From Candidatus Omnitrophota bacterium (lineage in GTDB: Bacteria > Omnitrophota > Omnitrophia > Omnitrophales > Aquincolibacteriaceae), in NCBI GenBank assembly GCA_030698625.1, contig JAUYMS010000048.1:218404-282403 (forward strand): a DNA stretch of 64,000 bases. The letters are read 5' to 3'. Below are positions 39,221 through 58,555 of this stretch, piece after piece; within the stretch, counting starts at the first letter, position 1; every line of letters starts with the position of its first letter. The notes under the pieces are model-generated. The model was given only the letters and a program-made list of their open reading frames with translations, was not told the DNA's origin and searched no databases. The position numbers and the translations under genes were made by a program.

Positions 39221-39371
39221 AGACTCCCGCCTTAAGTCATTTCATATAAAAGAGTTAGCGCAGTTTTATGCGAGGCAATGATTTGCGCACATCATATAGC
39301 AATAACGATCTTTCATAAAAACTAACACCCAAAAATTTGCATTGGCATTCATTGTTATGTAATCTTATATA

Positions 39372-39400
39372 CAGATCATGATTGTGTTTACCATGATCTG
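39372..39400. promoter_or_regulatory. perfect 9-bp inverted repeat, CAGATCATG-n11-CATGATCTG: candidate operator 12 nt upstream of the HTH gene
   Basis: Read directly from the sequence. It is the only strong dyad in the 190-bp AT-rich intergenic region at 39221-39411. Confidence 0.5.
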
Positions 39401-39411
39401 GAAGGATATCT

Positions 39412-39669
39412 ATGGATAACGGTCACGAAAATCCCGAGGAAGCACCGATTCCGCCTCCACAGAATCAGATCATGACTCTTCAACAGGTCGCCGACTATCT
39501 TGGATTGCACCATCTGACTATCTACAAATTGGTGCAGGAGAGAAAAATTCCCGCCGCTAAAGTCGGCGGAAGCTGGCGATTCAAGAAAGATGTCCTCGAT
39601 CAGTGGATCGAGCAGGATATGGCGCAGAGGGGCAGTCGAAGCGGTCGAAACGGCCGCAACGGAAACTAG
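39412..39669 (+). CDS. small excisionase-family helix-turn-helix DNA-binding protein (HTH_17/MerR-superfamily)
   Basis: The segment [46 protein letters not shown] matches the excisionase-type HTH. It is followed by an Arg/Gly/Asn-rich tail. Confidence 0.75.
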
Positions 39670-39676
39670 AATCGAC

Positions 39677-41998
39677 ATGAACGACGAACAAAGGCTACCA
39701 CCGGCAGCCGATGATGTTAAGCGTCTCCGTGACGCTGAGTCAAAGGCTCGTACGATCCAAAAACAGAGCGAGCAGATTCTGTCCGCGATTACTTCGATTT
39801 TGATCGGCATCGACCGTGATGGGAAAGTGACCCATTGGAATTTGATTGCTGAGGAAACCTTCCGTATCGCGTCCAAGGATGCCATAAAACAGAGTTTGAG
39901 ATCCTGTAAGATCGATTGGGATTTTGAGCTTCTCAATCGGGCGATTTCCGAAGTGATGGAGAAAAGACAAAGTATCCGGATGAAAGATCTGAGATTCAAA
40001 CGAGTGAATGGGAAAGAAGGACTTCTTGGTTTTAGTGTGAATCCAATCGTCGGTGAAGCCGACGGCGACTGCGGCATACTTCTATTGGGAGCGGATATTA
40101 CCGAGCGGCGGCGGGAACAAGCGCAGCTCAAGAGCCATGCCGAGGCCCTTGAGATTGCCAAAGCACGCATCGAGGAAGAGAAGCTCAAGGATCATGCCCT
40201 CCTTGAAAGCATCGGTGACGGGGTTATCGCCACCGATCGAGAAGGACGCGTTATCCTAGCTAATACCCCTGCGGTATCCATGTTTGGATGGGATAGCCAG
40301 GCTATCCTCGGCAAGCCGATTACCGAATCGTTGGTACTCCAGGACGAGAGGCGCTCCTGGATCCCCGAAAACGAGCGCCCCATACCGGTAGCACTGAAGA
40401 CCGGCAAGAAGACTCGCATGGAGGCCTACTTCGTGCGTCCCGATGAATCGCGGTTTCCCATTGCCATAACCGCGTCGCCCATTATTTTTGAGAATAAGAT
40501 TATCGGCGTCATTGAAACAATTCGTGACATCTCTCAGGAAAAAGAGATCGACCGCATGAAAACGGAGTTTATTTCGACCGTCTCGCACGAGTTGCGGACT
40601 CCGCTTACCACGATCCGTGAAGGTGTGGCCCAGGTACTCGAAGAATTGCTCGGCCCGCTCAACGACGACCAAAAGGAATTCTTGGATATCGCACGCCGCG
40701 AAGTCGACCGCCTTGCGGCCATTATTAATGACCTGCTCGATATTTCGAAGATAGAATCCGGAAATATTACATTCAAAAGGGTCCATGTGAACGTGAATGA
40801 GCTCATTAAGAGGGTTGTCGCCAATTGTCAGAGTTTGATTAAGAGCAAAGAACTGACATTGGAAACCGTGTTGCCTGAGCATGCCGTTGAGGCTTTCCTG
40901 GATCAAGATAAGATGGTGCAGACAATCACTAACTTTGTTTCAAATGCCTATAAGTTTACCGAGCCGGGAGGATCGATTCGGGTGGGTCTTAAAGACTCTG
41001 AGACGGAGCTTTTCATCTATGTCGAAGACACAGGCATTGGCATCGGCGAAGACGACGTCCCAAAACTTTTCAACAAATTTGTTCAGATCGGACGTACAGC
41101 CGGTCCGGGCATTAAAGGCACGGGACTCGGACTGACCATCGCGAAGAATCTTATTCAGATGCACGGAGGGAAGGTCTGGGTAGAATCTGAAGTCGGAAAA
41201 GGCAGCAGGTTTACTTTTAGTATCCCGAAGACCAAAAAAGAATTTGTGGCTCAGGAAAATGTAAATCACGGAATTAGGGACTATTCCGGAAACGGAAAGC
41301 CGTTGTCGCTCATCCTCTGGAAAATGGAATCCGCAAACGGAGGTGCGAACGGTGCCTCAACCGACAATCTCCGCAGCGTTTTTGAAGCAGCGGGACGTAA
41401 TATCCAGGAGATCATGAACAACGAGGCAGAAGTTTACCCCATCGACGTCAACGAGGGATTTATTTTGCTGCCGGGTTACAGCAAGGAGAAGGCCATGGCG
41501 GTTCGTGACAAATTGACGCAGGGCACGCGCGAATTCGTCGACCAACTGCGAAAAGAGGGCCCCGTAGAGATGAACGTACAGTTTGGCGTTTCCACTTACC
41601 CCGAAGAGGCCGTCACCAGCAAGGACCTTCTACTCAAAGCCGAAATATCGCTGAAACAGGGCTATCTGGGTGCCGAGAGAAGGGCGCATACGCGTACGGC
41701 CTTTGAAATGAACATCAGTTTGGCGTCAGAGCCCGGGCAGGCGGTGGATTCGCAGACCGTCGACATCAGCGCTGGAGGCATGAGGATCTGCTGTGGTAAC
41801 GAGCTGCCGGTCGGTAGTGTCCACGAAGTCCTCTTCTCGCTTCCGAAGGATCATGGAGTCGTACAGGCGAAAGGAGTCGTCGTTTGGTCGCAGAAGGGCA
41901 ATGAGGACGCGGGGTATATCTGCGGCGTCAAATTTGTGGGCATGTCTGCGGCCCATCAAGAGAAACTTAACGGTTTTATAAAAAGAGAACTGGCTTAG
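39677..41998 (+). CDS. cytoplasmic multi-domain sensor histidine kinase: PAS x2, HisKA, HATPase_c, degenerate GGDEF-like domain, C-terminal PilZ
   Basis: The start is placed at MNDEQ, 8 nt after the HTH stop. The protein has no transmembrane helix. It carries the H-box [12 protein letters not shown] and the N/G boxes. A GGDEF-like segment follows (...[24 protein letters not shown]...[11 protein letters not shown]...) that lacks the GG[DE]EF motif. The C-terminal PilZ domain has the RAHTR and DISAGG motifs. Confidence 0.85.
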
Positions 41999-42016
41999 GA
42001 CGTGCAGGAGGAAACC

Positions 42017-42400
42017 ATGGGAAAGAAGAAAGTTTTATTTGTTGATGATGAACCGATGATTGTCAAAATTATGAAGAGTCGGCTGGAAGCTAATAATTAT
42101 GAGGTTTTTACAGCCCTCTCTGGGCAAGAGGCTATTGAACTGGCCCTGGGGCAGAAACCCGATCTCATCCTCTTGGATATCCTTATGCCCGATTTGAATG
42201 GCTATGAGGTATGCGGGCGTCTGAAATCCAACCCGAGGACAAAGGAAATTCCGGTGATCATGTTCACGGCGTTGCAGGAGGATGAATGCAAGGAGCGTTC
42301 CGAAGAAATGGGAGCCGTCGAAATCATCCGCAAGCCCTTTGTCGGCGATCTTGTGAGGGCTATCCGCAAAGTATTTGAGCAGGAATTCAGCAGCCAGTAG
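42017..42400 (+). CDS. single-domain response regulator (REC only)
   Basis: An AGGAGGA ribosome-binding site precedes the ATG at 42017. The protein has VLFVDDEP...DLILLDILMPDLNG...RKPF and no output domain. Confidence 0.85.
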   Translation: MGKKKVLFVDDEPMIVKIMKSRLEANNYEVFTALSGQEAIELALGQKPDLILLDILMPDLNGYEVCGRLKSNPRTKEIPVIMFTALQEDECKERSEEMGAVEIIRKPFVGDLVRAIRKVFEQEFSSQ

Positions 42401-42492: not shown

Positions 42493-44877
42493 ATGCTAAA
42501 AGGCTCGAGTATCTCGTCACGGCTCATTTTCGGATTTTTGGCTATTGCGCTTCTCGTAGCCGGGGTGAGCATTTTTTCCTTTCGTGAGCTGCGGAAGGTT
42601 GAAGGACCTCTTCGAGCTGATATCCCCCGCGCCCTGACCGAAATCGAAACCACATCACGCCTCGACAGCCTTGCCACGAAAATCCGCCTCTATGACCAGA
42701 TCCTGACGGAAGCCGCGCGCGAATATGTATCTACGGGCGATCGGCAATGGAAATTCCGCTATAAGGATTTCGAGCCCAAGTTGGATGCGGCGATCAAGGA
42801 GGCCATTCACCGCGGAGATCATGAGGACGAGAGTCTTTTCTCGGAGCTTCAGAAGGCGAAGCTCGTTTTTGTCCACGTGGAACTCCAAGCGCTCGGTTAC
42901 GTAGGGCAGGGTCAACAGGAAGAGGCGGCTCAAGTGCTTGAGAGCCTTGATTACTGGAACGCTAAACGCGAATACAAGAAAATTCTGGAAGAGTATGCTG
43001 AAAGACGCAACCAGAAATTCGACGACACCTTTCAAGTCACGGCGAAAAATGTTGAATCTATTGTTCAGGCGACGAGGAAAACGGTTCGTGATTCCATTAA
43101 CCTGCTCTCCATTCTCAGCGGATTGGCCCTTGTGCTCGCCATAGCGCTGGGAATTTTCATTGCGCGCTCAATTTTGAATCCGCTTCGATCCTTGCAGCAG
43201 GGCACCGAGATCGTCGGTAAAGGCAATCTTGACCATCGCATTGAAACCAATTCCAAGGACGAAGTCGGGCAGTTGGCGCGGGCCTTTAACGAGATGTCTC
43301 TGAAATTAAAGAATTCCTATGCCGGTCTTGAAGGCAAGGTGAGGGAAAGGACCAAGGAACTCGGCGATGCTCTCGAGGATCTCGAGAAAGCCAAGTCTCA
43401 GATCGAAGAAGAAAAGGCCAAGGACGAAGCCATTCTTGCCAGCATCGGAGAGGGCATGATTGCAACCGATCGAGAGGGCAAGATCATGATGATGAACAAG
43501 CAAGCCGGGCTGATGCTCGACTTGCGCGAACGGGACGTTGTGGGCAAAGTCTTCGGGGATGTGATCCGCAACCAGAACGATAAGGGGGAACCCATTACGG
43601 GTGAGCAGTCTCCTCTTTACAACTCGTTGTCGACCGGAAAGAAAATCGTCGCAACAGCCTATTACGAGCGCAAGGACAGAACTAAATTTCCTGCCGCAAC
43701 TACGGTATCACCGATCGTTCGCGACGGGAAAACAGTAGGTGCCATTGGGATATTTAGGGACATTACGCACGAAAAAGAAGTTGATCGGATGAAAACTGAG
43801 TTTATATCTACCGTATCTCACGAATTGCGAACTCCTCTCACCGTCATTCGCGAGGGGGTTTCGCTTGTCATGGATAACATCCTGGGGCCGACAACCGAGG
43901 AGCAGCAGAACTTTCTTAATCTGGCGCTTAGCGACATTGATCGCCTAGCCCGCATTATCAATAATCTACTCGATGTCGCCAAGATTGAGGCCGGAAAAAT
44001 GGGTCTCAAGCGGGAGCGAACTGATGTTAACGAACTTGTCCGGGATGTTGTTTCCACTTTCAAGGCCAGTGCCGAGGGCAAGGGGTTAAAAATCAGGCCT
44101 AAAGTTCCGGCCGAAAAACTCGAGCTTTATATTGATCGGGATAAGATCATCCAGGCCTTTACCAATATTATCGGTAACTCCCTCAAGTTTACCGAGAAGG
44201 GACATATTGATGTTTATATCGAAGATAAAGGAGAGTGCTTGGAATGCGGCATATCTGACACGGGCCGAGGGATGTCCGAGCAGGATTTAGCAAAACTCTT
44301 CAGCAAGTTTCAGCAGTTTGGCCGTACTGACGGCGGCGGCGAGAAGGGAACCGGCTTAGGCCTGTCCATCGCAAAGGGGATTGTGGAACTCCATCAGGGA
44401 AAAATCTGGGTTGAAAGCGAACTCGACAAGGGGACAAGCTTTAAGTTTCAAATACCCAAGTATTCCCCGAAGGAGCTCTTCCGTGGGTATGTTGTGCGCG
44501 GACTGCGCGACGCTGTCAACCAGGGCTCGTCGCTTTCGGTGTTTTCCTTTGGCGTCAAGGATTGGGAAAACGTGAGACGGGACCTAGGATCCAATAAATC
44601 TCCCGAAGTTGTGGAATACCTGGAAGATGCCGTGAAGGCGCACCTCAAGAACCGAGAGGACCAGACAGTCACTGACGATAACGCCGTATTGATGGTGTTG
44701 CCGGCCATTGAAAAGAAGAAGGCGGAGTTCGTTGCCGCGGATGTTAAAAAATCGTTCGCCGATATTTTGGCCAAACACGGATTCAACGGCAACATTCAGA
44801 TGGACTACCGACTTGCAAGTTATCCTGACGATGGTAGTACGGAAGAAGATCTGCTCTGTATCGTGAGAGGAACTTAA
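42493..44877 (+). CDS. membrane sensor histidine kinase: TM, ~190-aa periplasmic domain, TM, HAMP, PAS, HisKA, HATPase_c, degenerate GGDEF-like domain
   Basis: It is a paralogue of the 39677 kinase: the two share a long block from EEEK(L/A)KD...IATDREG... through ...[25 protein letters not shown]. It carries the HAMP motif (LARAFNEM). The C-terminal segment ...TDDNAVLMVLP...YRLASYPDDGSTEEDLL is GGDEF-like without the motif. Confidence 0.85.
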   Translation: MLKGSSISSRLIFGFLAIALLVAGVSIFSFRELRKVEGPLRADIPRALTEIETTSRLDSLATKIRLYDQILTEAAREYVSTGDRQWKFRYKDFEPKLDAAIKEAIHRGDHEDESLFSELQKAKLVFVHVELQALGYVGQGQQEEAAQVLESLDYWNAKREYKKILEEYAERRNQKFDDTFQVTAKNVESIVQATRKTVRDSINLLSILSGLALVLAIALGIFIARSILNPLRSLQQGTEIVGKGNLDHRIETNSKDEVGQLARAFNEMSLKLKNSYAGLEGKVRERTKELGDALEDLEKAKSQIEEEKAKDEAILASIGEGMIATDREGKIMMMNKQAGLMLDLRERDVVGKVFGDVIRNQNDKGEPITGEQSPLYNSLSTGKKIVATAYYERKDRTKFPAATTVSPIVRDGKTVGAIGIFRDITHEKEVDRMKTEFISTVSHELRTPLTVIREGVSLVMDNILGPTTEEQQNFLNLALSDIDRLARIINNLLDVAKIEAGKMGLKRERTDVNELVRDVVSTFKASAEGKGLKIRPKVPAEKLELYIDRDKIIQAFTNIIGNSLKFTEKGHIDVYIEDKGECLECGISDTGRGMSEQDLAKLFSKFQQFGRTDGGGEKGTGLGLSIAKGIVELHQGKIWVESELDKGTSFKFQIPKYSPKELFRGYVVRGLRDAVNQGSSLSVFSFGVKDWENVRRDLGSNKSPEVVEYLEDAVKAHLKNREDQTVTDDNAVLMVLPAIEKKKAEFVAADVKKSFADILAKHGFNGNIQMDYRLASYPDDGSTEEDLLCIVRGT

Positions 44878-44881: not shown

Positions 44882-45247
44882 ATGCCTAAAAAGATCTTGG
44901 TTGTCGATGACGAAACGAATATTGTGCTTGTGATTAGTTCACGGTTGAAGGCAAACGGGTTTCAAGTTGTTACGGCCGAATGCGGACGGGATGCTCTCGA
45001 AAAAGCGGACAGCGAAAAACCGGACCTTATCGTGCTGGATGTCATGATGCCTTCACCCGATGGCTATGAGGTGTGCCGTATGCTGAAAGGAGACCCGAAA
45101 CATAAGAACGTGCCTGTCATTATTTTGACGGCGAAGGTCTCGGAGCAGGACCGGTCAAAAAGCGCTGAATGCGGGGCAGATGCGTTTGTCACAAAGCCCT
45201 ATAGCCCGAGCGAATTGCTGGGAAAAATAAAGGATCTCATTCCTTAA
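44882..45247 (+). CDS. single-domain response regulator (REC only, PilH-like)
   Basis: Contains ILVVDDETN...DLIVLDVMMPSPDG...TKPY. Confidence 0.85.
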   Translation: MPKKILVVDDETNIVLVISSRLKANGFQVVTAECGRDALEKADSEKPDLIVLDVMMPSPDGYEVCRMLKGDPKHKNVPVIILTAKVSEQDRSKSAECGADAFVTKPYSPSELLGKIKDLIP

Positions 45248-45263
45248 CGCGGAAGGAGCATTG

Positions 45264-46985
45264 ATGCTGGTGGATCACGATCAGAATGCCTTAGGTGAAA
45301 AACTGGTTCAGGCAGGAGCCCTGACGCAGGAGCAATTCTCTGCGTCGGCAGGCGATGCGACTGCGAACGGGACTTCTCTTGTTCGTCAGCTCTTGAGCTC
45401 CGGCTTGGTTTCCAAGGCAAAAGTTTACGAGACCCTGGCCGACGTCTACGGGGTGCCTTACATTGATATTTCGAATTTTCAAATATCCCCGGATGCCATC
45501 AAATGCCTCTCGGGAGAAATCGCTCACCGCTACCGGGCAATTCCCCTCTTCAAGATCGGCGAGACCTTAAATGTCACTATGGAGAATCCTGCTGATGTGG
45601 GGGCTGTGGACCGTATTACTCAGAAAAGCAAATGCCATGTCGATGTCTGTTTATCGGCGCCCGAAGATATCGAAGAGGCACTGCGAACTCATTACGGTTC
45701 CGGCAACGCCATCAATGAGTTGTTGGCAACTTTTAGCAAGGAGAGAAGCCATCGGTACAGGGAATTGCAGAAGAAACCCGCACAGGGTTTGTCCTTCATG
45801 CCGGCTCCGGTCAAGAAGGAGATGGGAGTCAAGCCTGTTATTCAGCTCGTGGATCTTATCATCAAGCAGGCCTACGAGGAGGGCGCCAGTGATATTCACA
45901 TCGAGCCGGAGGAAAAGATGCTCCGCGTACGCTATCGGGTCGATGGGGTTCTGCATGAGGCCGCTGAGCCGCCCAAAGAAATGGAGTCGGAGATCATTTC
46001 CCGTATTAAAGTACTTGCTGAAATGGACATTGCCGAAACGCGCATTCCACAAGACAGCCGCATTAAAATGGATATTCAAGGAAAGAACGTGGACATGCGT
46101 GTCTCCACCATGCCGACCGTTTATGGCGAAAATGTGGTAATCCGCATACTCAAGGACGCCGGCGCGGTTTTAGACCTTTCGAGTCTGGGTTTTACCGACG
46201 AGATGAAAAAGATGTTTGAAGGCATCATCCGGCATCCTTACGGCATGATCCTGGAGACGGGCCCGACCGGTTCCGGTAAAACGACCACACTCTATGCGGC
46301 GTTACGTATGATCAATACCGTTGAGCGCAACATTGTTACCATCGAAGATCCGGTGGAATACAAACTGCCGCTCATCCGCCAAATTCCAGTCAATGTGAAA
46401 GCAGGCCTGACTTTTCCGACGGCCCTGCGCTCGATCTTAAGGCAGGATCCCGATGTCATTATGGTCGGTGAAATACGCGACCAAGAAACCGCGGAAATCG
46501 CGATCCAGTCTGCACTGACAGGCCATCTCGTGCTCTCAACACTTCATGCCAACACGGCGGCTGGGGTGGTGACTCGTCTTGTTGATATGCATGTGGAGCC
46601 GTTTCTGGTCGCATCGTCTGTAATTGGGGTCGTATCTCAGCGTCTTATACGGTCTATTTGTTCCAAGTGCAAAGAGGAGCACAAGCCGACCGAGCTTGAA
46701 TTGACAGCGCTCAAGTGGGAAGGTCCGGAGCCGCTGCCGGCCTTCAAAGGGAAGGGCTGCCGCCAGTGTCACGACACGGGGTACAAGGGCCGTGTCGGTG
46801 TTTTTGAAATGATGCGCATGAATGATCGCATTCGAAAAAAGATCGTGTCAAACGCGTCAGCGGCCGAAATTCAAAGTGAGGCACGCGAGACCGGTAATGC
46901 AAGTTTGCGCGACGATGCCATCGTTAAAATCAAGATGGGAATGACGACAATTGAAGAAGCGTTAAAGTCAGTCGAGATAGAATAG
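45264..46985 (+). CDS. type II secretion/type IV pilus assembly ATPase (GspE/PilB family) with N-terminal GspE_N/MshEN-like domain
   Basis: Walker A motif GPTGSGKTT, with Asp and His boxes and a tetracysteine cluster (CSKC...CRQCHDTG). The N-terminal roughly 150 aa are GspE_N-like. Confidence 0.9.
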   Translation: MLVDHDQNALGEKLVQAGALTQEQFSASAGDATANGTSLVRQLLSSGLVSKAKVYETLADVYGVPYIDISNFQISPDAIKCLSGEIAHRYRAIPLFKIGETLNVTMENPADVGAVDRITQKSKCHVDVCLSAPEDIEEALRTHYGSGNAINELLATFSKERSHRYRELQKKPAQGLSFMPAPVKKEMGVKPVIQLVDLIIKQAYEEGASDIHIEPEEKMLRVRYRVDGVLHEAAEPPKEMESEIISRIKVLAEMDIAETRIPQDSRIKMDIQGKNVDMRVSTMPTVYGENVVIRILKDAGAVLDLSSLGFTDEMKKMFEGIIRHPYGMILETGPTGSGKTTTLYAALRMINTVERNIVTIEDPVEYKLPLIRQIPVNVKAGLTFPTALRSILRQDPDVIMVGEIRDQETAEIAIQSALTGHLVLSTLHANTAAGVVTRLVDMHVEPFLVASSVIGVVSQRLIRSICSKCKEEHKPTELELTALKWEGPEPLPAFKGKGCRQCHDTGYKGRVGVFEMMRMNDRIRKKIVSNASAAEIQSEARETGNASLRDDAIVKIKMGMTTIEEALKSVEIE

Positions 46986-48292: not shown

Positions 48293-48685
48293 GTGAAGTA
48301 TTCTAAGAAAAATCAAAGAGGGTTTACCTTAATTGAATTGGTCATGGTGATCGTCATCCTAGCCGTATTGGGTGCCGTAGCCATTCCGATTTATGTCGAC
48401 CTGTCGGGTGAGGCGAATTCGGCGGCAGAGGAGGGCGTTGTCGGCGGTGTTCGCGCCGGCGTTGCGACCTACTTTATCGATCCGGCTCGCGGAAACCGCA
48501 CATCGTATCCGTCGGCATTAGGTACGGCCACAAACGCCGCTTGTAGTAAAACCAATGCGTGTTTCGCCACTGTGTTGCAACAAGGCGGCGTGACGCAGGG
48601 TTGGACAAAGACCGGTGCGTTGGCGTATACGGGTCCGAATGGCGGAACCTATACCTTTAACACGACGACAGGGGCCTTCTCGTAA
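48293..48685 (+). CDS. major pilin/pseudopilin with prepilin-type N-terminal cleavage/methylation signal
   Basis: A GTG start preceded by an AGAGGAGG ribosome-binding site. The class III signal ...QRG|FTLIELVMVIVIL is present. The protein is 130 aa. Confidence 0.85.
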   Translation: MKYSKKNQRGFTLIELVMVIVILAVLGAVAIPIYVDLSGEANSAAEEGVVGGVRAGVATYFIDPARGNRTSYPSALGTATNAACSKTNACFATVLQQGGVTQGWTKTGALAYTGPNGGTYTFNTTTGAFS

Positions 48686-49782: not shown

Positions 49783-50361
49783 ATGATACGAACAATCAAT
49801 GAAAAATGTTTTCGCCAACGCACGAGCTCGCAAAGAGGATTCACGTACTTAGAGATGATAATGGCCATCGTGATCATCAGCGTGATCGCGACGATCGCAG
49901 GGCCCGTCCTCGCCATGGCGGTGGATGCCATTACTCTGCATCTCGACGACGCGAACCTGGGAGAGGGGGGACGGATTGCCATCGCGCGAATGACGCGGGA
50001 AACACGCCGTCTTAGGAACGATGAAAGCGTTGTCACGGCGACGGGTGTCGAATTTGAATTTGTGGATGTCGATGACGTGCAGATCCGATATCGGCTTGTG
50101 GGCACTGACTTGATGCGGCGCGAAAGCGCGGCAGGGACAGAGTCTGACTTAATCGCGCAGGTGCAAGCCTCAGGCCTTGCCTTTATTTACTATGACGATG
50201 ACGGGAATACGATCGCTACGCCGGCCGCCGGACTGGGAACCAGTACCGATATCAGGCGTATCGAAATCCAGTTGACGCTGAGCGACGGGACCAACGCGCT
50301 GCCGCTTGTTACGATTGTCAGACCGAGGAACTTGAGACATGAGTCAAATCTATTTTCGTAA
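49783..50361 (+). CDS. minor pseudopilin (GspJ/PulJ-like) with prepilin N-terminal signal
   Basis: Contains ...SQRG|FTYLEMIMAIVII. The protein is 192 aa. Confidence 0.75.
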   Translation: MIRTINEKCFRQRTSSQRGFTYLEMIMAIVIISVIATIAGPVLAMAVDAITLHLDDANLGEGGRIAIARMTRETRRLRNDESVVTATGVEFEFVDVDDVQIRYRLVGTDLMRRESAAGTESDLIAQVQASGLAFIYYDDDGNTIATPAAGLGTSTDIRRIEIQLTLSDGTNALPLVTIVRPRNLRHESNLFS

Positions 50362-51866: not shown

Positions 51867-52088
51867 ATGCTCTACTCAGCAATGATTCTTGGGGCTTTGA
51901 CCTTGGTCTTTGGCTGCTTACTCCTATTTGGCCGGGAGAAGCTGAAGGCGATGAGTGATAAGCTCAACCGCGTTGTACTTGCGGAAACCTGGATGTGGGA
52001 CCACCGGGTCGCCATCGGAATTCTCTTGATCGGGCTCTCGGGTTTTCTTTTTGCCGGGGCCTACTTCCTGGTGAAGTTCAACTCATAA
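51867..52088 (+). CDS. small membrane protein (74 aa, two transmembrane helices), unknown function
   Basis: An AAAGGA ribosome-binding site lies 8 nt before the ATG at 51867. It has two hydrophobic helices. The ORF track extends it upstream. Confidence 0.5.
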   Translation: MLYSAMILGALTLVFGCLLLFGREKLKAMSDKLNRVVLAETWMWDHRVAIGILLIGLSGFLFAGAYFLVKFNS

Positions 52089-52233: not shown

Positions 52234-52476
52234 ATGAAACGTTTAATGCGCCGCACGGAATTAGCGAGGGCACTCGGCACAACCCCGCCCACGGTGAAGT
52301 ATTACACCTCTCTCGGGCTTTTCCCAGTTGAGAAGAAGACCGACCACGGCCAATACTTATACAACTACGAAGCGGTCAAAGGGCGATATGTGCGAATTCT
52401 TGAGTTGAAAGAAAAGCGTTTGAGGATTGATGAAATCAAAGACCGCTTAAGAATAGAAGTCTTAATCCAGAACTGA
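52234..52476 (+). CDS. small MerR-family HTH transcriptional regulator
   Basis: An AAGGAGAG ribosome-binding site precedes the ATG at 52234. The N-terminus MKRLMRRTELARALGTTPPTVKYYTSLGL is a MerR-type HTH. The C-terminal helix is short and the protein is about 80 aa. Confidence 0.7.
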   Translation: MKRLMRRTELARALGTTPPTVKYYTSLGLFPVEKKTDHGQYLYNYEAVKGRYVRILELKEKRLRIDEIKDRLRIEVLIQN

Positions 52477-52507: not shown

Positions 52508-53338
52508 ATGAAGACCATTGCCATTGCAAACCAGAAGGGTGGATGCGGTAAGACCACAACTGCCGTCAATCTCAGCGCTTGTCTCGCACAGCGAGGGTGC
52601 CGCGTCCTGCTCGTCGACCTCGATCCCCAGGCACACGCGACTCTGGGTGTCGGGATTGATCCGTACAAATTGGAGGAATCCGTCTACGACGTCCTCCTTA
52701 AACCGGACCGTTCGGTGCAGGATATCGTCCGGCGTACCGAGGTCAAAAACCTGTGGGTTGCGCCGTCGAACATTCTGCTTTCGGGTGCCGATATCGAGTT
52801 GGTCAATCGCATGGGACGCGAGAGGGTTCTGGAGGAGGTCTTTTCGAATGTTACAACTCTGTATGACTACGTCATCATCGACTGTGCGCCTTCCCTGAGC
52901 CTGCTCACCGTGAATGCCATGAATTTTGTGCAGGAGATCCTTATCCCGATTCAGGCCCATTACTATGCCATGGAGGGCATGAAGCAGCTCTTCAGCACCA
53001 TCGATGAAGTCAAAAAGCGCCTAAACCCCGATCTGAAAATCCTAGGCATTCTGTTGACCATGGTGGACACGCGCACGAACATCTGCCGGGAAGTCGTCCG
53101 AGGGGTTCGTGATTATTTTCAGGATAAGGTTTTTAAGACTGAAATCCACATCAACGTAAAATTAACCGAAGCGCCGAGTGCCGGTAAACCCATTACGGTC
53201 TATGACCCCTGTTCGGTAGGGGCAAAGGAATACGAAGATTTGGCCAGCGAGGTTCTCGGCGTCGAGAAGGAAGTTCCTCGGGAAACGACAACCGCACCCC
53301 AAGGAGAAACGGTCTTCCATGGCGAAGAAGCGGTCTAG
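52508..53338 (+). CDS. ParA/MinD-family P-loop ATPase
   Basis: Deviant Walker A motif KGGCGKTTTAVNL, together with DLDPQ and IIDCAPSLS. The protein is 276 aa. It lies between the pseudopilin genes and the PilM-like gene. Confidence 0.85.
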   Translation: MKTIAIANQKGGCGKTTTAVNLSACLAQRGCRVLLVDLDPQAHATLGVGIDPYKLEESVYDVLLKPDRSVQDIVRRTEVKNLWVAPSNILLSGADIELVNRMGRERVLEEVFSNVTTLYDYVIIDCAPSLSLLTVNAMNFVQEILIPIQAHYYAMEGMKQLFSTIDEVKKRLNPDLKILGILLTMVDTRTNICREVVRGVRDYFQDKVFKTEIHINVKLTEAPSAGKPITVYDPCSVGAKEYEDLASEVLGVEKEVPRETTTAPQGETVFHGEEAV

Positions 53339-55058
53339 CGGCCTTAGCAAGAAAATACCGGCGATATTTCAAGGTGTTCCCGACATCGAATCGACTTCGC
53401 GGCGGGCGTCCGCTCAGGAGCACCGTGCACAGAGCGGCACGAAAAAGGGCTTCGGAGCACGGCGCGCCCCCGGAACCTTTCGTATCCTGTTTGAAGTAGG
53501 CGGTTCTACTGCCAAGGCAATGGGTGTTGCGAAGCGGGGCGGGCGATGGACAGTCGTCGAATGCCGGACGTTTCATGCGCTTACGGACAAGCAAGGAAAA
53601 GTTGACTTCAAATGGGATGAACTCGGCAAGTGGATCGCCGAGACAACGGCGGAAATTGCGGGCAACTCGTCCTATGAAGCACGTTTACTGCTTGTAGATT
53701 CAGGGATTTATTTAGGGGAGACAGAAAGGCCGGACGTTGCGGCGAAGGAGCTCAAGGAAGCCTTGATATGGCAGGTTGCCGAAAATCTTCCTTTTCCCGC
53801 CGAAGAGTCGACGCTCCGCTTTGAAGAGCATGAAGACAAGGTCCTTGTTGCGGCGGTAGAGAATGTCTATTTAGAGACCGTTTTAAAGTGTTTCCACAGT
53901 GCCGATGTCTATCCGGCTGTGGTGACTTTACTGCCGGTTGCTTATCAGGCCCTCAACGACCAATATGCACCCATTACATCGGGCAATGTTATGGTTATCC
54001 ACATCTCAAAGTTCCGCACTTTTATTTTGGCCTTTCGCGGCGGGGTCTTTCACTCAATACGCGAGCTATCGCTTGGCGGAGATCATATTACGCAGGCCAT
54101 GATGGGTACCCTTGTCGTGGATGCCAATCAAATCAACATTGGTTATGATGAGGCTCAGGCGCTCAAAGAGTCCCTCGGTCTTCCGACCCACAACCTCATG
54201 CCGGACCCCAGCGAACCGAAGCATTCCCAACTCTCAGCGAGAATTCGACCTATCTTCGAGAAAATGGCCAGCGAATTTCGCAGCTCGAGCACTCAATTTG
54301 AACAGGCGATCGGCGGCGAGAAGGTAGAATCGATTTTTCTGGCCGGCGGTGGCGCCGAAATGAATGGCATTCAGGAATATTTTTCCGGTCAATTGAATTT
54401 GCCGGTTAAAAATCTCGATCTCTCGAGCGTTGACCCTTCGTTAAGTACTGCATTGGCCGGTGTGGCAGGCATGGCCTTTGTTCCCGAAAATCGTCTGAAT
54501 TTTGCAAGCACGGAAGACCGCTTGAAGCCGCGCTTTGAAAAGTATCGCGACATTCTAAAGATTGTCATGCTGGGGATAGGGGGTCTCTTATGCCTGGTCT
54601 TGTTGGGTCTGGGGATGCAGATTGTGGGCAAGAAGCAGGAGCTCCGGGAACAGCATGCGGCTTTCCGTGAGATGGGCGGTAGTGATGAAAAGCTAATTCA
54701 GCTCGACTTTATGCTGGAAAAAATCACGGCGACGAAGGATTTGCGCAAAAGCGTAATCAAGCCCGATCCGCCTCATGGCACCGTACTGCGTGAATTAAGC
54801 CACCTGGTAATGCCGGCAATGGTATTTCGCGAGATGGACTTTCGGAGGGCTCCGAGCCCGACAGCGCAGTTTAAAGGGATTATTCAATTGGGGCCGCGTT
54901 CTCCGGACATCATCCTATCGGAATTTCTCGAGGGCTTGAACAAATCATCCGTGTTCCGCGATGCCCGCCTCACATCCCGCAGCGGGTCCGAAGAGGGGAC
55001 TGCAGGTGAATTGCAGTTCAACGTTCAAACGGAATTGGTGGTGGGCGATGAATCTTAA
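53319..55058 (+). CDS. PilM(actin-like)-TM-PilN fusion, GspL-like inner-membrane assembly protein with a ~55-aa basic N-terminal extension
   Basis: An AAGGAG ribosome-binding site precedes the ATG at 53319. A PilM-like actin fold (FEVGGSTAKAMGV...) is followed by the single transmembrane helix ILKIVMLGIGGLLCLVLLGLGM and a periplasmic PilN-like domain. Confidence 0.75.
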   Translation: MAKKRSSGLSKKIPAIFQGVPDIESTSRRASAQEHRAQSGTKKGFGARRAPGTFRILFEVGGSTAKAMGVAKRGGRWTVVECRTFHALTDKQGKVDFKWDELGKWIAETTAEIAGNSSYEARLLLVDSGIYLGETERPDVAAKELKEALIWQVAENLPFPAEESTLRFEEHEDKVLVAAVENVYLETVLKCFHSADVYPAVVTLLPVAYQALNDQYAPITSGNVMVIHISKFRTFILAFRGGVFHSIRELSLGGDHITQAMMGTLVVDANQINIGYDEAQALKESLGLPTHNLMPDPSEPKHSQLSARIRPIFEKMASEFRSSSTQFEQAIGGEKVESIFLAGGGAEMNGIQEYFSGQLNLPVKNLDLSSVDPSLSTALAGVAGMAFVPENRLNFASTEDRLKPRFEKYRDILKIVMLGIGGLLCLVLLGLGMQIVGKKQELREQHAAFREMGGSDEKLIQLDFMLEKITATKDLRKSVIKPDPPHGTVLRELSHLVMPAMVFREMDFRRAPSPTAQFKGIIQLGPRSPDIILSEFLEGLNKSSVFRDARLTSRSGSEEGTAGELQFNVQTELVVGDES

Positions 55059-55650
55059 CGCATCGATCAAGCTGCCCCCTGGCTCCGCTGCCCTGCTTCG
55101 CATGGCAGTGAGGACGCAATTCGCGCATTGGGCAGCGGCCGTAATTGTCTCATTGGCTGTTGCCGTAACGGTTGTTGTTTTGCCGCTGACAAGGCATCTG
55201 AGGGTGCTCCATGAGCGTGTCGAGAAAGTTCAGGTGAAGATGGAAAAGGTAGAGGGGATCTCGCGCGGAGCTCGGGATTTCAACAGAATATTGGATGAAC
55301 TTTCCGACGAATTCCGCGAGCTCAAAACGCAAGTGCTTCAGCCCGGGGAGCAGGCCAAGGTCATTTCATTACTGACACAGACCGCCGAAGATCTGAATAT
55401 CACAATCTTGAGCATGAACCCCATTTTGAAGAAAGAGACCGCGGAAGCAGGGGAAGAGAAAAAGATCCGTCCGGCCCTCTTCGAGGTAGAAATGTCCTGT
55501 CATTATAAAACCCTGGGTGTCTTTTTTGAGCGATTAACGGCAGCTCCGTTGATTCTTACGGTCGAAGGTTTCGACGCGCGGCCTGAGGTGCCGAATGCAC
55601 CCGTGCTTAATGTCCGCCTCTTGGTGGCGGCGTATGTCGAGTGGCTATGA
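55048..55650 (+). CDS. PilO/GspM-like bitopic assembly protein
   Basis: The ATG at 55048 overlaps the upstream stop. The protein has an N-terminal transmembrane helix, a coiled coil and a periplasmic domain. Confidence 0.65.
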   Translation: MNLNASIKLPPGSAALLRMAVRTQFAHWAAAVIVSLAVAVTVVVLPLTRHLRVLHERVEKVQVKMEKVEGISRGARDFNRILDELSDEFRELKTQVLQPGEQAKVISLLTQTAEDLNITILSMNPILKKETAEAGEEKKIRPALFEVEMSCHYKTLGVFFERLTAAPLILTVEGFDARPEVPNAPVLNVRLLVAAYVEWL

Positions 55651-56039
55651 TGAAGGCGAGCCGAGCAGCGAAATTTTTGGGGTTAATCGCGGTGATTGCG
55701 TGGGCGGTATTTGAGGGCCCCGCGGTGTCCGTTAACGCAGCTGTTGAAGGAGGAATGATTCAGCGCGGCTGGGGAAGGGATCCGTTTGTTCCCCTCGATT
55801 ACGAGCGGGCAGCGGTAGCGGCCAAAGAGAAGCTCATGCCGGAGGCGGAGACTAAAGATGAAAGTTATTGGCTTTCGGGTGTGCTCTATCGCAAAGGGCG
55901 CAGCGTTGCGATCATTAACCGGGTTTTGGTGCGAGAGGGTGATGAAATCTTCGGTGCGAAAGTCGTTAAGATATTGCCGGACCGTGTTCTGATGAGTAAA
56001 GCAGGCAAAGAAATCATAATTCGATTGGGCGTGGGATGA
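55647..56039 (+). CDS. PilP/GspC-like periplasmic protein
   Basis: A signal or anchor sequence, with a C-terminal beta domain (...GVLYRKGRSVAIINRVLVREGDEIFGAKVVKILPDRVLM) typical of PilP. Confidence 0.6.
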   Translation: MMKASRAAKFLGLIAVIAWAVFEGPAVSVNAAVEGGMIQRGWGRDPFVPLDYERAAVAAKEKLMPEAETKDESYWLSGVLYRKGRSVAIINRVLVREGDEIFGAKVVKILPDRVLMSKAGKEIIIRLGVG

Positions 56040-57787
56040 GACATTCATTCGTGAAGAAAATCTTTGGAATCAGCCTCAGCTTCATGATGGCTCTGACCGG
56101 TCCAGGGTTAGTCCGGGCGGAAGTTACGGGGCCGCAATTCGGCCAAAACGGGGCCGGCGAGGAGGATACTTACCTGCAACTCCACAACGCGGATATTCAG
56201 GACGTGCTTCGTCTTATCGCGGAGGAATATGATCTTAACATTGTCATCGCTGACGATGTTGTCGGCACGATTTCAATGCGTCTTAAACGTGCGACTCTTG
56301 TCAACACGCTTGATGCGATTCTTCTTGCACGCGGTTATGATTATGACATCCACGACAACATCATTCGCGTGGCACCCGTCGCCATTGTTGATGCCGAGCG
56401 GGCCAAGCGCGTGGATAAGCAAGAGTTGGAGGCCTTGGTTCCGGAAGTCATTGCTCTGAGTTATCTTGATGCCAACGACATCCTTGGGGTGGTTCAGTCG
56501 CTACTCACATCGCGCGGGTCCGTTCGGGCTCTGGAACGGCGCGCTCATAAGGGATTCCGTTTCGGGTCGGGATCCTCCGGTGACACCGGGGGTTCTTCCT
56601 CGTCGGGAGGGAACTCTGCGTCTTCCGGAGGTGATTTCGGCGGGCTCATCAGGTCGCGCGTCGAGGGCGATAACGACAAGCCGCGCTCAAATACCTTGCT
56701 TGTGGTTGATATCCGATCTCAGATTGAGCGGATCAAAGAAGTGATTCGTGAAGTTGATGTGGCTCCGCAACAAGTTCTGATTGATGCCAGAATCCTTGAG
56801 GTCGATACCGACACGCTCGAAGACCTCGGTCTCGATTTTAACAGTGAGAATTCTTTGACTGCGAGCGGAGATAAGAGCAACGCCCTGAACTTTGACCTTA
56901 ACAGCGATACTTCCTCCACGGGTGTCAATTCAGGCATTTTCACGACCGCCTTTCCGGGGGCATCAGATGCCGGGCTACGCACGATCTTCCGCCGTTTAAA
57001 CGGAGAAGATTTCACGGCGATATTGCATCTCCTTTTACAGGATGAACGGACTAAGACGCTTTCGGCGCCCAAGATTTTAACCATAGAAAATCAGGAGGCA
57101 GCCATTCTGGTCGGTGAGCAATTTCCGATCTTTGAGTCGAATGTCTCCGATCAGGGTACGGTTACTGAAACCCTGTCGTTTTTTCAACCGATCGGCATCA
57201 GCTTGCAGGTTCTTGTCCAGGTCACTCCGAATAAAGATATCAACATGATCATCCATCCGACAGTAAGCTCTATCGGAGCCTTTGTGACGGGAACGAGCGG
57301 GCTGACTCAGCCGCGAATCAATATCCGCGAAGCCGATACGCGCGTACTTATCAAGAACGGAGAAACGCTGGTAATCGGAGGCCTGCTTGAGGATATTGTC
57401 GATGAGAAAAAATATGGTATCCCTTTCCTGAAGGATATGCCCCTCGTGGGGAATCTGTTCACACGCAGACAAGTTGACATCGATCAGCGCAACTTGCTTA
57501 TCTTTATTACACCGCGTGTTGTCGGTTTGGATGATGCAGCGCTTTCTGAGACCGAACAGCTGACTTATCAGGCGCTCGAAGACCCGGCCGCATACGGTTT
57601 TCTCCACGAGCGGCGCTCAACGATCGACAGCATTTTCGAGGGCGCAAAAACGAACTTTGAAACGGGTCATCCTACCGTTGCCCGCGCACAATTCCTGCGC
57701 GTGTTAAGTCTGGACCCGCATCACAAGGGGGCTATCAAGCATCTTAAGGAGTTGGAGGCCCTGCCGCGGGAGCGGCCCATTGGGTAA
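56036..57787 (+). CDS. secretin (GspD/PilQ family) outer-membrane channel
   Basis: A signal peptide, then N-domains, a Gly/Ser-rich linker and the secretin domain (...VLIKNGETLVIGGLLED...GIPFLKDMPLVGNLF...LLIFITPRVV). Confidence 0.9.
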   Translation: MRHSFVKKIFGISLSFMMALTGPGLVRAEVTGPQFGQNGAGEEDTYLQLHNADIQDVLRLIAEEYDLNIVIADDVVGTISMRLKRATLVNTLDAILLARGYDYDIHDNIIRVAPVAIVDAERAKRVDKQELEALVPEVIALSYLDANDILGVVQSLLTSRGSVRALERRAHKGFRFGSGSSGDTGGSSSSGGNSASSGGDFGGLIRSRVEGDNDKPRSNTLLVVDIRSQIERIKEVIREVDVAPQQVLIDARILEVDTDTLEDLGLDFNSENSLTASGDKSNALNFDLNSDTSSTGVNSGIFTTAFPGASDAGLRTIFRRLNGEDFTAILHLLLQDERTKTLSAPKILTIENQEAAILVGEQFPIFESNVSDQGTVTETLSFFQPIGISLQVLVQVTPNKDINMIIHPTVSSIGAFVTGTSGLTQPRINIREADTRVLIKNGETLVIGGLLEDIVDEKKYGIPFLKDMPLVGNLFTRRQVDIDQRNLLIFITPRVVGLDDAALSETEQLTYQALEDPAAYGFLHERRSTIDSIFEGAKTNFETGHPTVARAQFLRVLSLDPHHKGAIKHLKELEALPRERPIG

Positions 57788-57791
57788 GGCT

Positions 57792-58172
57792 TTAGGCGGG
57801 GGAAGTCTCTCCTAGTAATTCTTTGACCTTGTTGAGCAATACTTCGGACTGGAAGGGTTTGGTGAGATAGGCATTGGCACCGACCTGCATTCCCGCTTTC
57901 CTCTCATCGTCCTGAACTTTTGCGCTGCACATCATAATCGGAATCTGTTTGAACTGGTCGTCGAGTTTCAGGATCTGAGCGACACGATACCCGTCCATCT
58001 TAGGAAGCATGACATCCAAGATGATAAGATCAGGTTTTTCGCTGCGCGCTTTATGAAGACCTTCTTGGCCGTCCATGGCCGTAATGACTTCATAGCCGTT
58101 CGCCTTAAGACGAGCCTGCATGATCGTCAAAATCGGAGCCTCATCGTCAACAACTAATATCTTTTTTCCCAC
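57792..58172 (-). CDS. single-domain response regulator (REC only)
   Basis: Contains ILVVDDEAP...DLIILDVMLPKMDG...TKPF. It converges on the end of the secretin gene. Confidence 0.85.
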   Translation of the reverse strand: MGKKILVVDDEAPILTIMQARLKANGYEVITAMDGQEGLHKARSEKPDLIILDVMLPKMDGYRVAQILKLDDQFKQIPIMMCSAKVQDDERKAGMQVGANAYLTKPFQSEVLLNKVKELLGETSPA

Positions 58173-58189
58173 CCGAAATTTTAAAACCC

Positions 58190-58555
58190 TTATCCTATTA
58201 ATTCAGTAACCTTCGAGATTAATAATTCGGGATCACATGGCTTTGTCAAATAGGCTTCGGCTCCCGTCAGTCGCCCGGTCTCCCTGTCTTGTTCCTGAAC
58301 CTTTGCCGTCAGAAAGATGATCGGGATGCCCTTATACAGATCGTCGAGCTTTAGCATTTTGGCGACACGGTATCCGTCCATCTTCGGCATCATGACATCC
58401 AGGATAATCAGATCCGGTTTGTCAGCTCTCGCCCGACTCAGACCCTCCTGCCCGTCTGAGGCCGTGATGGTTTCGTAGCCGTGCGCTTGAAGCCTGGAGG
58501 CGATTAACTTCAAAATTGTTGGTTCGTCGTCGACGATCAGAATTTTCTTAGGCAT
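58190..58555 (-). CDS. single-domain response regulator (REC only), tandem paralogue of the 57792 gene
   Basis: Contains ILIVDDEPT...DLIILDVMMPKMDG...TKPC. It is more than 60% identical to its neighbour by eye. Confidence 0.85.
   Translation of the reverse strand: MPKKILIVDDEPTILKLIASRLQAHGYETITASDGQEGLSRARADKPDLIILDVMMPKMDGYRVAKMLKLDDLYKGIPIIFLTAKVQEQDRETGRLTGAEAYLTKPCDPELLISKVTELIG

Follow-up and report, generated by a model that had tools for sequence, protein, structure and literature searches.

A Soj-type ParA and a ParB-like peptide inside a single-locus type IV filament machine of Omnitrophota

The DNA analysed here, a 64-kb stretch of contig JAUYMS010000048.1 from a Candidatus Omnitrophota assembly (hereafter the window), carries between positions 39221 and 58555 a block of 21 genes that falls into two units: a two-component module (39.4-45.2 kb) and, behind it, a type IV filament machine (45.3-58.6 kb). 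The distinctive feature of the machine is a Soj-type ParA ATPase, usually preceded by a small MerR-like protein. Its most unusual feature is a ParB-like peptide at the start of the protein encoded after parA, which had been overlooked in a first reading made without database searches (the sequence-only reading). With moderate confidence, we interpret the block as an adhesive-pilus machine with a built-in ParA positioning or licensing module, standing beside a two-component module. Judged from the predicted proteins, this arrangement points to a mode of pilus placement that has not been described before.

Gene calls were taken from the list of open reading frames (ORFs), and domains from Pfam and NCBIfam scans of the ORFs of the window. 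Together they reproduced the genes and gene order that the sequence-only reading had listed, and placed all 21 genes at the coordinates and with the domains given below. Related loci are numbered L001 to L016, and the window proteins were mapped on L001-L008 by tblastn. The features that carry the main finding are these:

52234..52476, + strand: MerR-type helix-turn-helix (HTH) protein of ~80 aa without an effector domain (MerR_1, 38.6 bits)
52508..53338, + strand: Soj-type ParA with a deviant Walker A motif, KGGCGKT, and DPQAH as motif 2 (AAA_31, 215.9 bits)
53319..53390, + strand: ParB-like N-terminal peptide of the PilM-PilN fusion, MAKKRSSGLSKKIPAIFQGVPDIE, overlapping the end of parA
53319..55058, + strand: PilM-PilN fusion of 579 aa, made up of the peptide, a disordered linker, an actin-like PilM, a transmembrane (TM) segment, a coiled coil and a PilN-like periplasmic domain (PilM_2, 42.2 bits)

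The ATPase has the characters of a ParA/Soj protein: a deviant Walker A motif of the form KGGxxK[ST], a Soj-like sequence and a basic DNA-binding residue (K218, for R238 of the M. xanthus protein). Its best matches among solved structures are M. xanthus ParA (PDB 8RAY, 239 bits) and T. thermophilus Soj (190 bits); against the NCBIfam ParA_partition equivalog it scores 111.3, below the cut-off of 180. Alignment to 8RAY shows that most residues of the ParB pocket and of activation are retained: Y81, E117, L150 and L152 are kept as Y60, E97, L130 and L132, and E82 as D61. Motif 2 reads DPQAH here vs DPQGN in Soj and ParA, the Asn of which coordinates the catalytic water in M. xanthus ParA, and DPQxH is found in 111 of the 120 top homologues. 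The His defines a subfamily, which may have altered ATPase kinetics.

None of the 14 related loci with sequence at that point lacks ParA (L001-L008 and L012-L016, of which L005 and L012 are possibly one locus), and across L001-L008 it is the best conserved protein of the cluster, at 65-84% identity vs 59-70% for the assembly ATPase, 59-66% for the secretin, 55-72% for the MerR-like protein and 33-43% for the PilM-PilN fusion. The MerR-like orthologues, 75-83 aa long, lie directly 5' of parA in most loci. The sequence-only reading had counted MerR and ParA among the extras of the machine, and they keep their place in relatives: the order E-F-pilins-large protein-(MerR)-ParA-PilMN-PilO-PilP-secretin recurs in Omnitrophota and in a Chlamydiota metagenome-assembled genome (MAG). 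The series of ParA homologues is continuous, and a filament locus was found in every context that could be looked up, down to 52-57% identity. We therefore read MerR and ParA as conserved parts of the machine, not as passengers. The loci at the distant end of the series are:

L012, Omnitrophota: ParA 66% identical; filament locus
L014, Omnitrophota: ParA 63% identical; extra PilZ and TPR genes
L013, Chlamydiota MAG: ParA 62% identical; full E-F-pilins-NHL-MerR-ParA-PilMN-PilO-PilP-secretin-REC, where REC is a receiver protein
L015: ParA 57% identical; two PilT-like ATPases, ParA, a 636-aa PilM-like protein and a secretin
L016: ParA 54% identical; unfused PilM, two small proteins, ParA, a PilP-like protein and a secretin

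The two PilT-like ATPase genes of L015 (6862-9720) lie directly 5' of parA, and some members of the ParA-linked family are for that reason probably retractile. L014 (7128-9382) has two additional genes before MerR-ParA, one for a stand-alone PilZ protein and the other for a TPR protein of 619 aa; they recall MshN and the PilZ adaptors of other pilus systems. L005 (GTDB Omnitrophota ZLKRG04) and L012 (an ENA contig) are identical in the first 90 residues of the fusion and may represent the same or nearly the same organism.

The peptide next to parA resembles the segment by which ParB contacts ParA. In the related loci the gene directly 3' of parA always starts with KKxxGLxKxΦxAIF. In the fusion the first ~20 residues are near-invariant (MxKKKxSGLSKKVPAIFQGLPDI, with G8, L9, S10, K11, P14, I16 and F17 invariant) and are followed by a variable linker; residues 1-51 are disordered in an AlphaFold2 (AF2) model, as is the corresponding part of ParB. 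The ParA-binding residues of M. xanthus ParB are L11, R13, L15, L18 and I19, and R13 is replaced by Lys in about half of ParBs (PMC12462528). T. thermophilus Spo0J (PDB 1VZ0) reads S-G-L-G-R-G-L-E-A-L-L where the fusion reads S-G-L-S-K-K-I-P-A-I-F, that is G8-L9-x-K11-x-I13-x-A15-I16-F17. The spacing i, i+2, i+4, i+7, i+8 is the same in the fusion, in Spo0J and in M. xanthus ParB, and the fusion and Spo0J coincide in the Gly, in the four hydrophobic residues (i, i+4, i+7, i+8), in the basic residue at i+2 and in the Ala at i+6.

This motif is kept in the Chlamydiota and in other distant members, and one of them separates it from PilM. In L016, where PilM is a separate protein encoded upstream, the peptide (MAKRKPGLHKEVTSIFGGVP) heads instead a 250-aa PilP/T2SSB-like protein encoded right after parA. 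This protein combines a linker rich in Pro and Gln with one TM segment, a topology that puts the peptide in the cytoplasm. The peptide thus tracks parA and not any one protein family. The strict motif occurs in 23 of 151 representatives of the PilMN family (the top 151 clusters) and in 0 of 240 other proteins. Searched with a loose regular expression, the six frames of the window show the motif at the start of no further gene-sized ORF, and the related loci gave one spurious match. A PDB search with the 24-aa peptide alone returned no match, the query being too short. Searched against 1.84 billion representatives, a profile of the fusion matches 302 clusters at E < 1e-30, about 25 of them strongly and over the full length, and with narrow degenerate patterns it retrieved three loci from GTDB representatives and one from JGI metagenomes; ParA is the better probe. 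By these counts the system is rare, yet it is spread across several lineages.

Among the closest known systems is ParABS (Soj-Spo0J). Shared with it are the fold and sequence of ParA, a partner that carries an N-terminal disordered peptide at ParB spacing, and the pocket residues Y, D/E, E, L and L. The locus differs in having no ParB domain, CTPase or parS (no ParB-family match was obtained among the locus genes with Pfam or NCBIfam), in carrying the peptide on a protein of an envelope machine, and in having His for Asn64 and Leu for D110 in the ATPase.

In the mechanism that we propose, the MshEN-type ATPase and the GspF/PilC platform would polymerise a small pilin of T4P (type IV pilus)/MshA-like type. 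The filament would be primed by an H-I-J-K-type complex of minor pilins, whose large K subunit differs from relative to relative and is adhesin-like in some, and assembly would proceed through an alignment complex of the PilM-PilN fusion, PilO and PilP and through the PilQ-like secretin. The cytoplasmic N-terminus of the fusion bears the disordered peptide that mimics the ParA-activating motif of ParB. ATP-bound ParA dimers, probably on the nucleoid, would bind this peptide at the inner-membrane alignment complex, and the peptide would stimulate ATP hydrolysis and so release ParA or switch it off. The machine would in this way be a cargo of ParA, which would set its position or spacing, or license its assembly, with respect to the nucleoid or the poles. 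Analogies are offered by ParB/parS in ParABS, by McdB-carboxysomes in McdAB and, functionally, by TadZ in the Tad system (PMC11407121). As for the MerR-like protein, it may regulate the operon that runs from merR through parA and pilMN to the secretin gene, or it may tether ParA. It is tempting to speculate, though we hold this generalisation more tentatively, that type IV filament machines are an unrecognised class of cargo for Soj-type ParAs. A DPQxH subfamily in Omnitrophota, environmental Chlamydiota and others would then read a ParB-mimicking peptide on the inner-membrane alignment protein encoded after parA, and the nucleoid would dictate where, or how many, pili are built in these very small cells.

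The remaining components of the machine are encoded as follows:

45261..46985, + strand: assembly ATPase with an MshEN-type N-terminal domain (59.3 bits) and a GspE/PilB core (T2SSE, 466.7 bits)
46988..48241, + strand: inner-membrane platform protein of the GspF/PilC family (T2SSF, 168.3 bits)
48293..48685, + strand: major prepilin with the cleavage site RG|FTLIE, ~120 aa when mature (N_methyl, 38.2 bits)
48818-49384, 49388-49780 and 49783-50361, + strand: three minor prepilins in H-, I/PilV- and J-like positions (N_methyl or weak GspH matches)
50339..51853, + strand: 504-aa K-position protein with a pilin-like, hydrophobic, GspK-like N-terminus that lacks Glu5 (ERG|VVLVG; TM 12-44)
51867..52088, + strand: small membrane protein of ~74 aa with two TM segments (1-25 and 47-72)
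55048..55650, + strand: PilO/GspM-like bitopic protein (PilO 19 bits, below cut-off; TM 53-83 of the long ORF)
55641..56039, + strand: periplasmic protein like PilP and the HR domain of GspC (weak T2SSB/T2SSC and GspC matches; position conserved)
56036..57787, + strand: outer-membrane secretin of 583 aa with N0, one Secretin_N and the secretin domain (Secretin, 148.7 bits)

A generic type IV filament system has been defined by an ATPase, an inner-membrane platform and a major pilin, with an optional secretin (Denise et al. 2019, PMC6668835). Here the ATPase, the platform, a pilin with a class III signal peptide and the secretin are all co-located, and under this definition the machine counts at the least as a generic system. 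To place the machine more narrowly we relied on pairwise core identities and on hidden Markov model scores. No part reaches the NCBIfam equivalog or subfamily cut-off for the type II secretion system (T2SS), the type IVa pilus (T4aP) or the MSH system. The closest miss of any component is that of the ATPase, with 619.6 against PilB (TIGR02538, cut-off 675.65) and 574.4 against GspE (TIGR02533, cut-off 630.25), and its best PDB match is Geobacter PilB. The platform protein scores 314.3 against GspF (TIGR02120, cut-off 424) and 284 against PilC (cut-off 700). The secretin reaches 261 against PilQ (TIGR02515, cut-off 284.35), 239.3 against GspD (TIGR02517, cut-off 351.35) and 129.4 against MshL (TIGR02519, cut-off 250.2). 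For the fusion the values are 51.8 against PilM (TIGR01175, cut-off 133) and 17.0 against GspL (TIGR01709, cut-off 65), and the PilP-like protein scores 19.5 against GspC (TIGR01713, cut-off 101.6). The proposal of a single-locus, T2SS/T4P-like machine outside the catalogued architectures is thus upheld for GspE, GspF, GspD, GspG, GspL, GspC, PilB, PilC, PilQ, PilM and MshL alike. TXSScan makes 'T4aP' calls in nearly all Omnitrophota (Seymour et al., PMC10066038), and a label given by homology alone may hide distinct sub-architectures in these genomes. The machine had also been called self-contained, which holds only in part: a prepilin peptidase (PilD) and a PilT/PilU-type ATPase were not found among the locus genes and the larger window ORFs scanned.

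The features that lean towards a pilus are the major pilin, the secretin and the PilM fold. The best PDB matches of the major prepilin are MshA (41.8 bits), Geopilin, T. thermophilus PilA5 and PilE, vs 15.6 bits for a GspG structure, and its match to the GspG model (TIGR01710) covers the N-terminus only, with 27.8 bits vs a cut-off of 88.85. In the PDB the secretin is nearest to PilQ (142.5 bits, vs 104 for GspD and 71.5 for RcpA); no AMIN or S domain was detected in it. The AF2 model of the fusion (pLDDT 77, a per-residue confidence score; TM 409-438) finds PilM structures first in Foldseek (5EQ6 and 2YCH, E 1e-19), and GspL ranks 46th, behind PilM, FtsA and MreB. The minor prepilins have signal peptides of the type G|FT(V/M/Y)(I/L)E and weak NCBIfam matches to ComGD, XpsI/PilV and ComGF. 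The PilO-like orthologues are 30-40% identical and sit at the same position, and the small two-TM protein is weakly conserved in L002, L003, L006 and L007.

The K-position protein had been described as a giant PilX/GspK-like protein; it is only 504 aa long. Profile searches gave it no Pfam, NCBIfam or PDB family, its single-sequence AF2 model (pLDDT 37.5) is unusable, and its orthologues are 33-53% identical. It is probably the tip subunit. The K position is held by a 673-aa NHL-propeller protein in the Chlamydiota locus L013 and by two DUF7305/ice-binding-like adhesive proteins in L016, and this fits a variable adhesive tip.

Compared with known systems, the machine shares with T4aP a PilB-like ATPase with an MshEN-type N-domain, a PilC-type platform, a G|FTLIE pilin, four minor pilins, the M-N-O-P-Q order, the PilM fold and a PilQ-like secretin. 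It departs from T4aP in being one locus in T2SS-like order, with PilM and PilN fused and ParA and MerR inserted before PilM; PilT/PilU, PilD, PilY1 and AMIN domains were not detected here, and all T4aP cut-offs are missed. Its likeness to the MSHA systems of Vibrio and Shewanella lies in the single large locus, the MshEN ATPase, MshA as the best solved-structure match of the pilin and a cyclic di-GMP (c-di-GMP)-linked context, and the TPR and PilZ genes of the relative L014 add to it. MshI is itself a single PilM/PilN-like protein. The machine differs from MSHA in the MshL score (129 vs 250), in an MshEN motif that lacks its Arg and in gene order; MshM and MshN are not in the window, and Msh loci are without ParA and MerR. 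We read the machine as a compact single-locus pilus between T4aP/MSH and T2SS. Its most likely function is that of an adhesive pilus, not of a secretion pseudopilus.

Several observations weigh against this interpretation as a whole. The gene order leans towards a T2SS. The ATPase core is 50-51% identical to XcpR (51%) and Comamonas GspE, which are 53% identical to each other, vs 46-47% to A. baumannii PilB (46%) and N. gonorrhoeae PilF. GspF outscores PilC, and PilT was not found in this locus; in L015, in favour of a pilus, PilT-like ATPases adjoin ParA-PilM. The MerR-like protein is missing in L005/L012, L015 and L016. In ParA, D110, which matters for ParB-stimulated hydrolysis in M. xanthus, is replaced by L90, and the catalytic N64 by H43; because of these two changes the ATPase cycle may differ. 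Many members have a Pro at i+5 of the peptide that could disturb a helix. Finally, the two-component module occurs without the machine in L010 and L011 and may control something else.

The first of these observations also speak for a T2SS, in which a short periplasmic pseudopilus would push folded proteins through the secretin and ParA and MerR would be accessory. The order runs E-F-G-H-I-J-K-...-L-M-C-D, GspF is the platform protein's best NCBIfam match, and no PilT was found in the window ORFs scanned. The PilP-like protein weakly matches GspC/T2SSB, the L-position protein is a single polypeptide, as is GspL, and the K-like subunit lacks Glu5. We nevertheless think a T2SS unlikely. The major subunit is MshA-like and not GspG-like, the secretin is nearer to PilQ, and a full PilM fold is present in the L-position protein. 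A PDZ domain is missing from the C-position protein, and the GspL, GspC, GspD, GspE and GspF equivalogs all score below their cut-offs, the first three by wide margins. Moreover, no conserved candidate substrate gene is evident in the locus, and the K-position protein is adhesin-like in relatives.

A further alternative, rather improbable in our view, keeps the pilus and gives ParA the role of an assembly or number regulator or of a polar hub, in the style of FlhG or TadZ/CpaE. ParA would bind the platform protein and MerR/HTH regulators and couple assembly to transcription, with no nucleoid ratchet. A 2024 review of ParA/MinD ATPases names TadZ/CpaE, a polar hub, as the sole case known for pili, and describes how FlhG alternates between two partners, of which one is a structural protein and the other a transcription factor (PMC11407121). 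TadZ is likewise a ParA/MinD-family ATPase inside a type IV filament locus and is needed to place the Tad machine (PMC11407121, PMC6668835). The gene for a DNA-binding MerR-like protein directly 5' of parA in most loci would suit such a role, and 111 of 120 subfamily members have His in place of N64, a hint that the ATPase cycle is altered. TadZ, however, resembles MinD/FleN and combines a receiver-like N-domain with a Walker A motif that is atypical, whereas the ATPase here is a Soj-type ParA, which has neither a membrane-targeting helix nor a receiver-like N-domain and keeps the DNA-binding Arg/Lys, and the peptide matches the ParB motif specifically. The machine is also unlike Tad, since the TadA model scores 57.5 vs a cut-off of 373 and neither a TadB/C platform, a Flp-type pilin nor an RcpA-type secretin was seen among the locus genes.

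We consider it very improbable that the locus encodes a pilus for DNA uptake (competence) or DNA handling, at the cytoplasmic face of which ParA and MerR/HTH would bind DNA like VirC1/VirC2 at type IV secretion. The block does hold two small DNA-binding proteins and a DNA-binding-type ParA, the minor pilins weakly match ComGD/ComGF, and VirC1 sets a precedent for ParA-guided delivery of DNA to a secretion machine (PMC11407121). The Com matches, however, are far below cut-offs, ComEA, ComEC and DprA were not seen among the locus genes or the window ORFs scanned, and the peptide sits on a structural and not on a DNA-binding protein. That MerR and ParA are mere passengers, such as the remnant of a partition module, and that the peptide is ParB-like by chance is hardly credible: ParA is indeed close to chromosomal Soj and neither ParB nor parS was identified here, but the adjacency is kept across phyla and rearranged architectures, the parA and pilMN reading frames overlap, ParA is the most conserved cluster protein in close loci, the peptide moves with parA to another protein in L016, and the motif occurs in none of the 240 control proteins.

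To our knowledge, the placement of T2SSs and T4P is understood in a few model organisms only, where it involves peptidoglycan or AMIN domains, polar landmarks or, for Tad, TadZ. In full-text literature searches of incomplete coverage, neither a T2SS- or T4aP-like locus with a Soj-type ParA nor a PilM or GspL homologue with a ParB-like peptide was found described. If the adhesive-pilus interpretation with its ParA module is true, it would add a new class of cargo to the ParA family and show how the transplanting of a short linear motif can recruit a positioning ATPase. It would also offer a testable handle, the peptide together with purified ParA, on pilus placement in Omnitrophota, for which a role of pili in attachment to host cells has been suggested (PMC10066038).

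The second unit of the block, the two-component module, and the receiver genes that close the block are made up as follows:

39221..39411, no strand: AT-rich control region 5' of the HTH_17 gene (GC content 34.6%, vs 51.5% for the window)
39412..39669, + strand: small HTH_17 (excisionase/MerR-superfamily) DNA-binding protein, the first gene of the module (Pfam HTH_17, 59.9 bits)
39677..41998, + strand: cytoplasmic sensor kinase 1, with PAS-PAS-HisKA-HATPase, a degenerate GGDEF-like region and PilZ (Pfam)
42002..42400, + strand: single-domain response regulator REC1 (Pfam Response_reg, 90.6 bits; orthologues in L009-L011 51-59% identical)
42493..44877, + strand: membrane sensor kinase 2, with TM, a ~170-aa extracytoplasmic domain, TM, HAMP, PAS, HisKA, HATPase and a degenerate GGDEF-like tail (Pfam)
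44882..45247, + strand: single-domain response regulator REC2 (Pfam, 101.4 bits)
57792..58555, - strand: single-domain response regulators REC3 (57792-58172) and REC4 (58190-58555), convergent with the secretin gene (Pfam, 101-103 bits)

The HTH_17 protein scores 63.8 bits against TIGR01764 (cut-off 28.8) and has orthologues at the same position in L009-L011. The control region before it is AT-rich and holds a perfect palindrome, as the sequence-only reading had it: an inverted repeat CAGATCATG-N11-CATGATCTG at 39372-39400 with arms of 9+9 nt, and arms of 9 nt arise in 1% of shuffles. Although statistically unusual in the window, this palindrome is not kept in L009-L011, and we rejected it as a conserved operator. 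The equivalent regions of L009-L011 have 30-38% GC. Common to the four genomes, upstream of the HTH_17 gene, is a block TTTGC..TG..AT.C.T..TTATGTAA (its ending also given as TTATGTAAC), found at 39320-39360 in the window, 9680-9720 in L009, 9650-9700 in L010 and 9575-9620 in L011. By its appearance the block may serve the two-component module as a conserved promoter or operator.

Kinase 1 starts at the ATG at 39677 and is 773 aa long, in agreement with a 100% identical NCBI Omnitrophota protein; ParA and the PilM-PilN fusion are likewise 100% identical to proteins of that Candidatus Omnitrophota MAG. Its PilZ domain (58.1 bits vs a Pfam cut-off of 22.5) has both binding motifs intact, RxxxR as RRAHTR (668-673) and (D/N)xSxxG as DISAGG (696-701), 23 residues apart. 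We regard this domain as the sole credible c-di-GMP input, with binding predicted. The GGDEF domains that had been assigned to both kinases fare less well: the regions carry degenerate motifs (VNEGF and TDDNA), neither kinase has a GG[DE]EF active site as expected of a diguanylate cyclase, the Pfam match on kinase 1 (18.3 bits) is below the cut-off of 23.8, and kinase 2 of the window has no Pfam match there. Some kinase orthologues do have precomputed PF00990 matches. The c-di-GMP link claimed for the block likewise stands for the PilZ domain of kinase 1 and not for the motor. In the ATPase the MshEN motifs (ALGEKLVQAG and SLVRQLLSSG) are missing the leading Arg of RLGxxLV, as they are in the orthologues, and the c-di-GMP motif model NF053729 gives 21.9 bits vs a cut-off of 38, below what an MSHA-type ATPase would show. 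For both reasons a direct c-di-GMP input to the motor is doubtful, and we set aside c-di-GMP binding by the ATPase. Orthologues of kinase 1 are about 870-911 aa long and 40-47% identical, and most have a precomputed match to the receiver domain (PF00072), which comes first at L010, the sole locus with its domain order given; Pfam detected no receiver domain in kinase 1 of the window. In kinase 2 the TM segments span residues 4-33 and 200-231.

The linkage of the module to the machine is partial. REC2 is kept after kinase 2 in L009, L011, L002 and L007, and kinase 2-REC lies directly 5' of the ATPase gene in the window, in L009 and in L002, where the genes 3' of the machine differ from those of the window; in L007 the REC alone is visible before the contig ends. 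The opposite-strand receiver genes had been noted as closing the block, and such a gene after the secretin also occurs in L001, L002 and the Chlamydiota locus L013; REC3 and REC4 are 60-68% identical to those of L001/L002 and 48% to that of L013. The place of kinase 2-REC before the ATPase in L002 and the recurrence of a post-secretin REC as far as Chlamydiota make some regulatory linkage between module and machine plausible. Expression or activity of the machine is probably governed by HTH_17, the kinase with PilZ and the HAMP-PAS kinase in the membrane, together with the four output-less receivers, with c-di-GMP and an extracytoplasmic cue as inputs. More distant relatives of the machine have other kinases nearby or none. 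The description of the module as the machine's own holds only in part, with L002 speaking for it and L010/L011 and the distant members against it, and the gene-order survey that the sequence-only reading had suggested came out divided: the machine order with ParA recurs, whereas the HTH-kinase-REC-kinase-REC linkage is not general.

The chromosomal setting bears on the same question. The left flank (ThiC-NadA-IspG-MqnC-ThiF-GreA-DUF1189-EamA-HhH-GPD) and the right flank (thioredoxin-aldolase-aldo/keto reductase-ThiF/rhodanese-aminotransferase) are syntenic in relatives. L009 and L001 are arranged as in the window. In L010 (GCA_964434115.1) and L011 (GCA_035495615.1), thioredoxin comes directly after HTH_17-kinase 1-REC-(extra REC protein)-kinase 2-(REC), and ATPase and secretin are both absent at that chromosomal site; protein identity to the window in both flanks is 55-85%. 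Because the module and both syntenic flanks occur there without ATPase or secretin, the machine with REC3/REC4 (45261-58555, 13.3 kb) is an insertion or deletion relative to L010/L011, and the module is therefore not exclusive to the machine. The extra REC protein is a receiver-domain protein of ~280 aa encoded between REC1 and kinase 2 (L010, 13156-13995; L011, 13082-13924), found neither in the window nor in L009.

GC across the block is flat. We considered a mobile island and disfavoured it, given this flat GC and the housekeeping flanks syntenic with relatives; tRNAs, integrases and flanking repeats were not scanned for, so the possibility is not fully excluded. Adjacent genes overlap by 4-23 nt at 50339-50361 (J/K position), 53319-53338 (parA/pilMN), 55641-55650 (pilO/pilP) and 56036-56039 (pilP/secretin), a pattern that fits translational coupling inside predicted operons.

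The genes 5' of the block include Trk, ThiC, NadA, IspG, MqnC-like, ThiF, PolX and QueG; ATP synthase genes were not found among the window ORFs scanned. PolX (35732-37444) and QueG (38021-39220) flank the conserved HhH-GPD gene in the interval from EamA to HTH_17 and are absent from the otherwise syntenic L009-L011, which makes them a second small insertion or deletion beside the module. About 25 kb 5' of the block lie genes for a FIST-domain protein (12296-13480, - strand) and a HAMP-PAS histidine kinase (15081-16910), apparently unrelated to it. The closest long relative, L001, has three extra genes. Two of them, for a 498-aa protein whose family was not recognised (423-1919) and for a second HTH_17 protein (2140-2340), lie between REC2 and the ATPase; the third, after the secretin, encodes a 615-aa protein whose family was likewise not recognised (14454-16301). 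These genes could be cargo or accessory.

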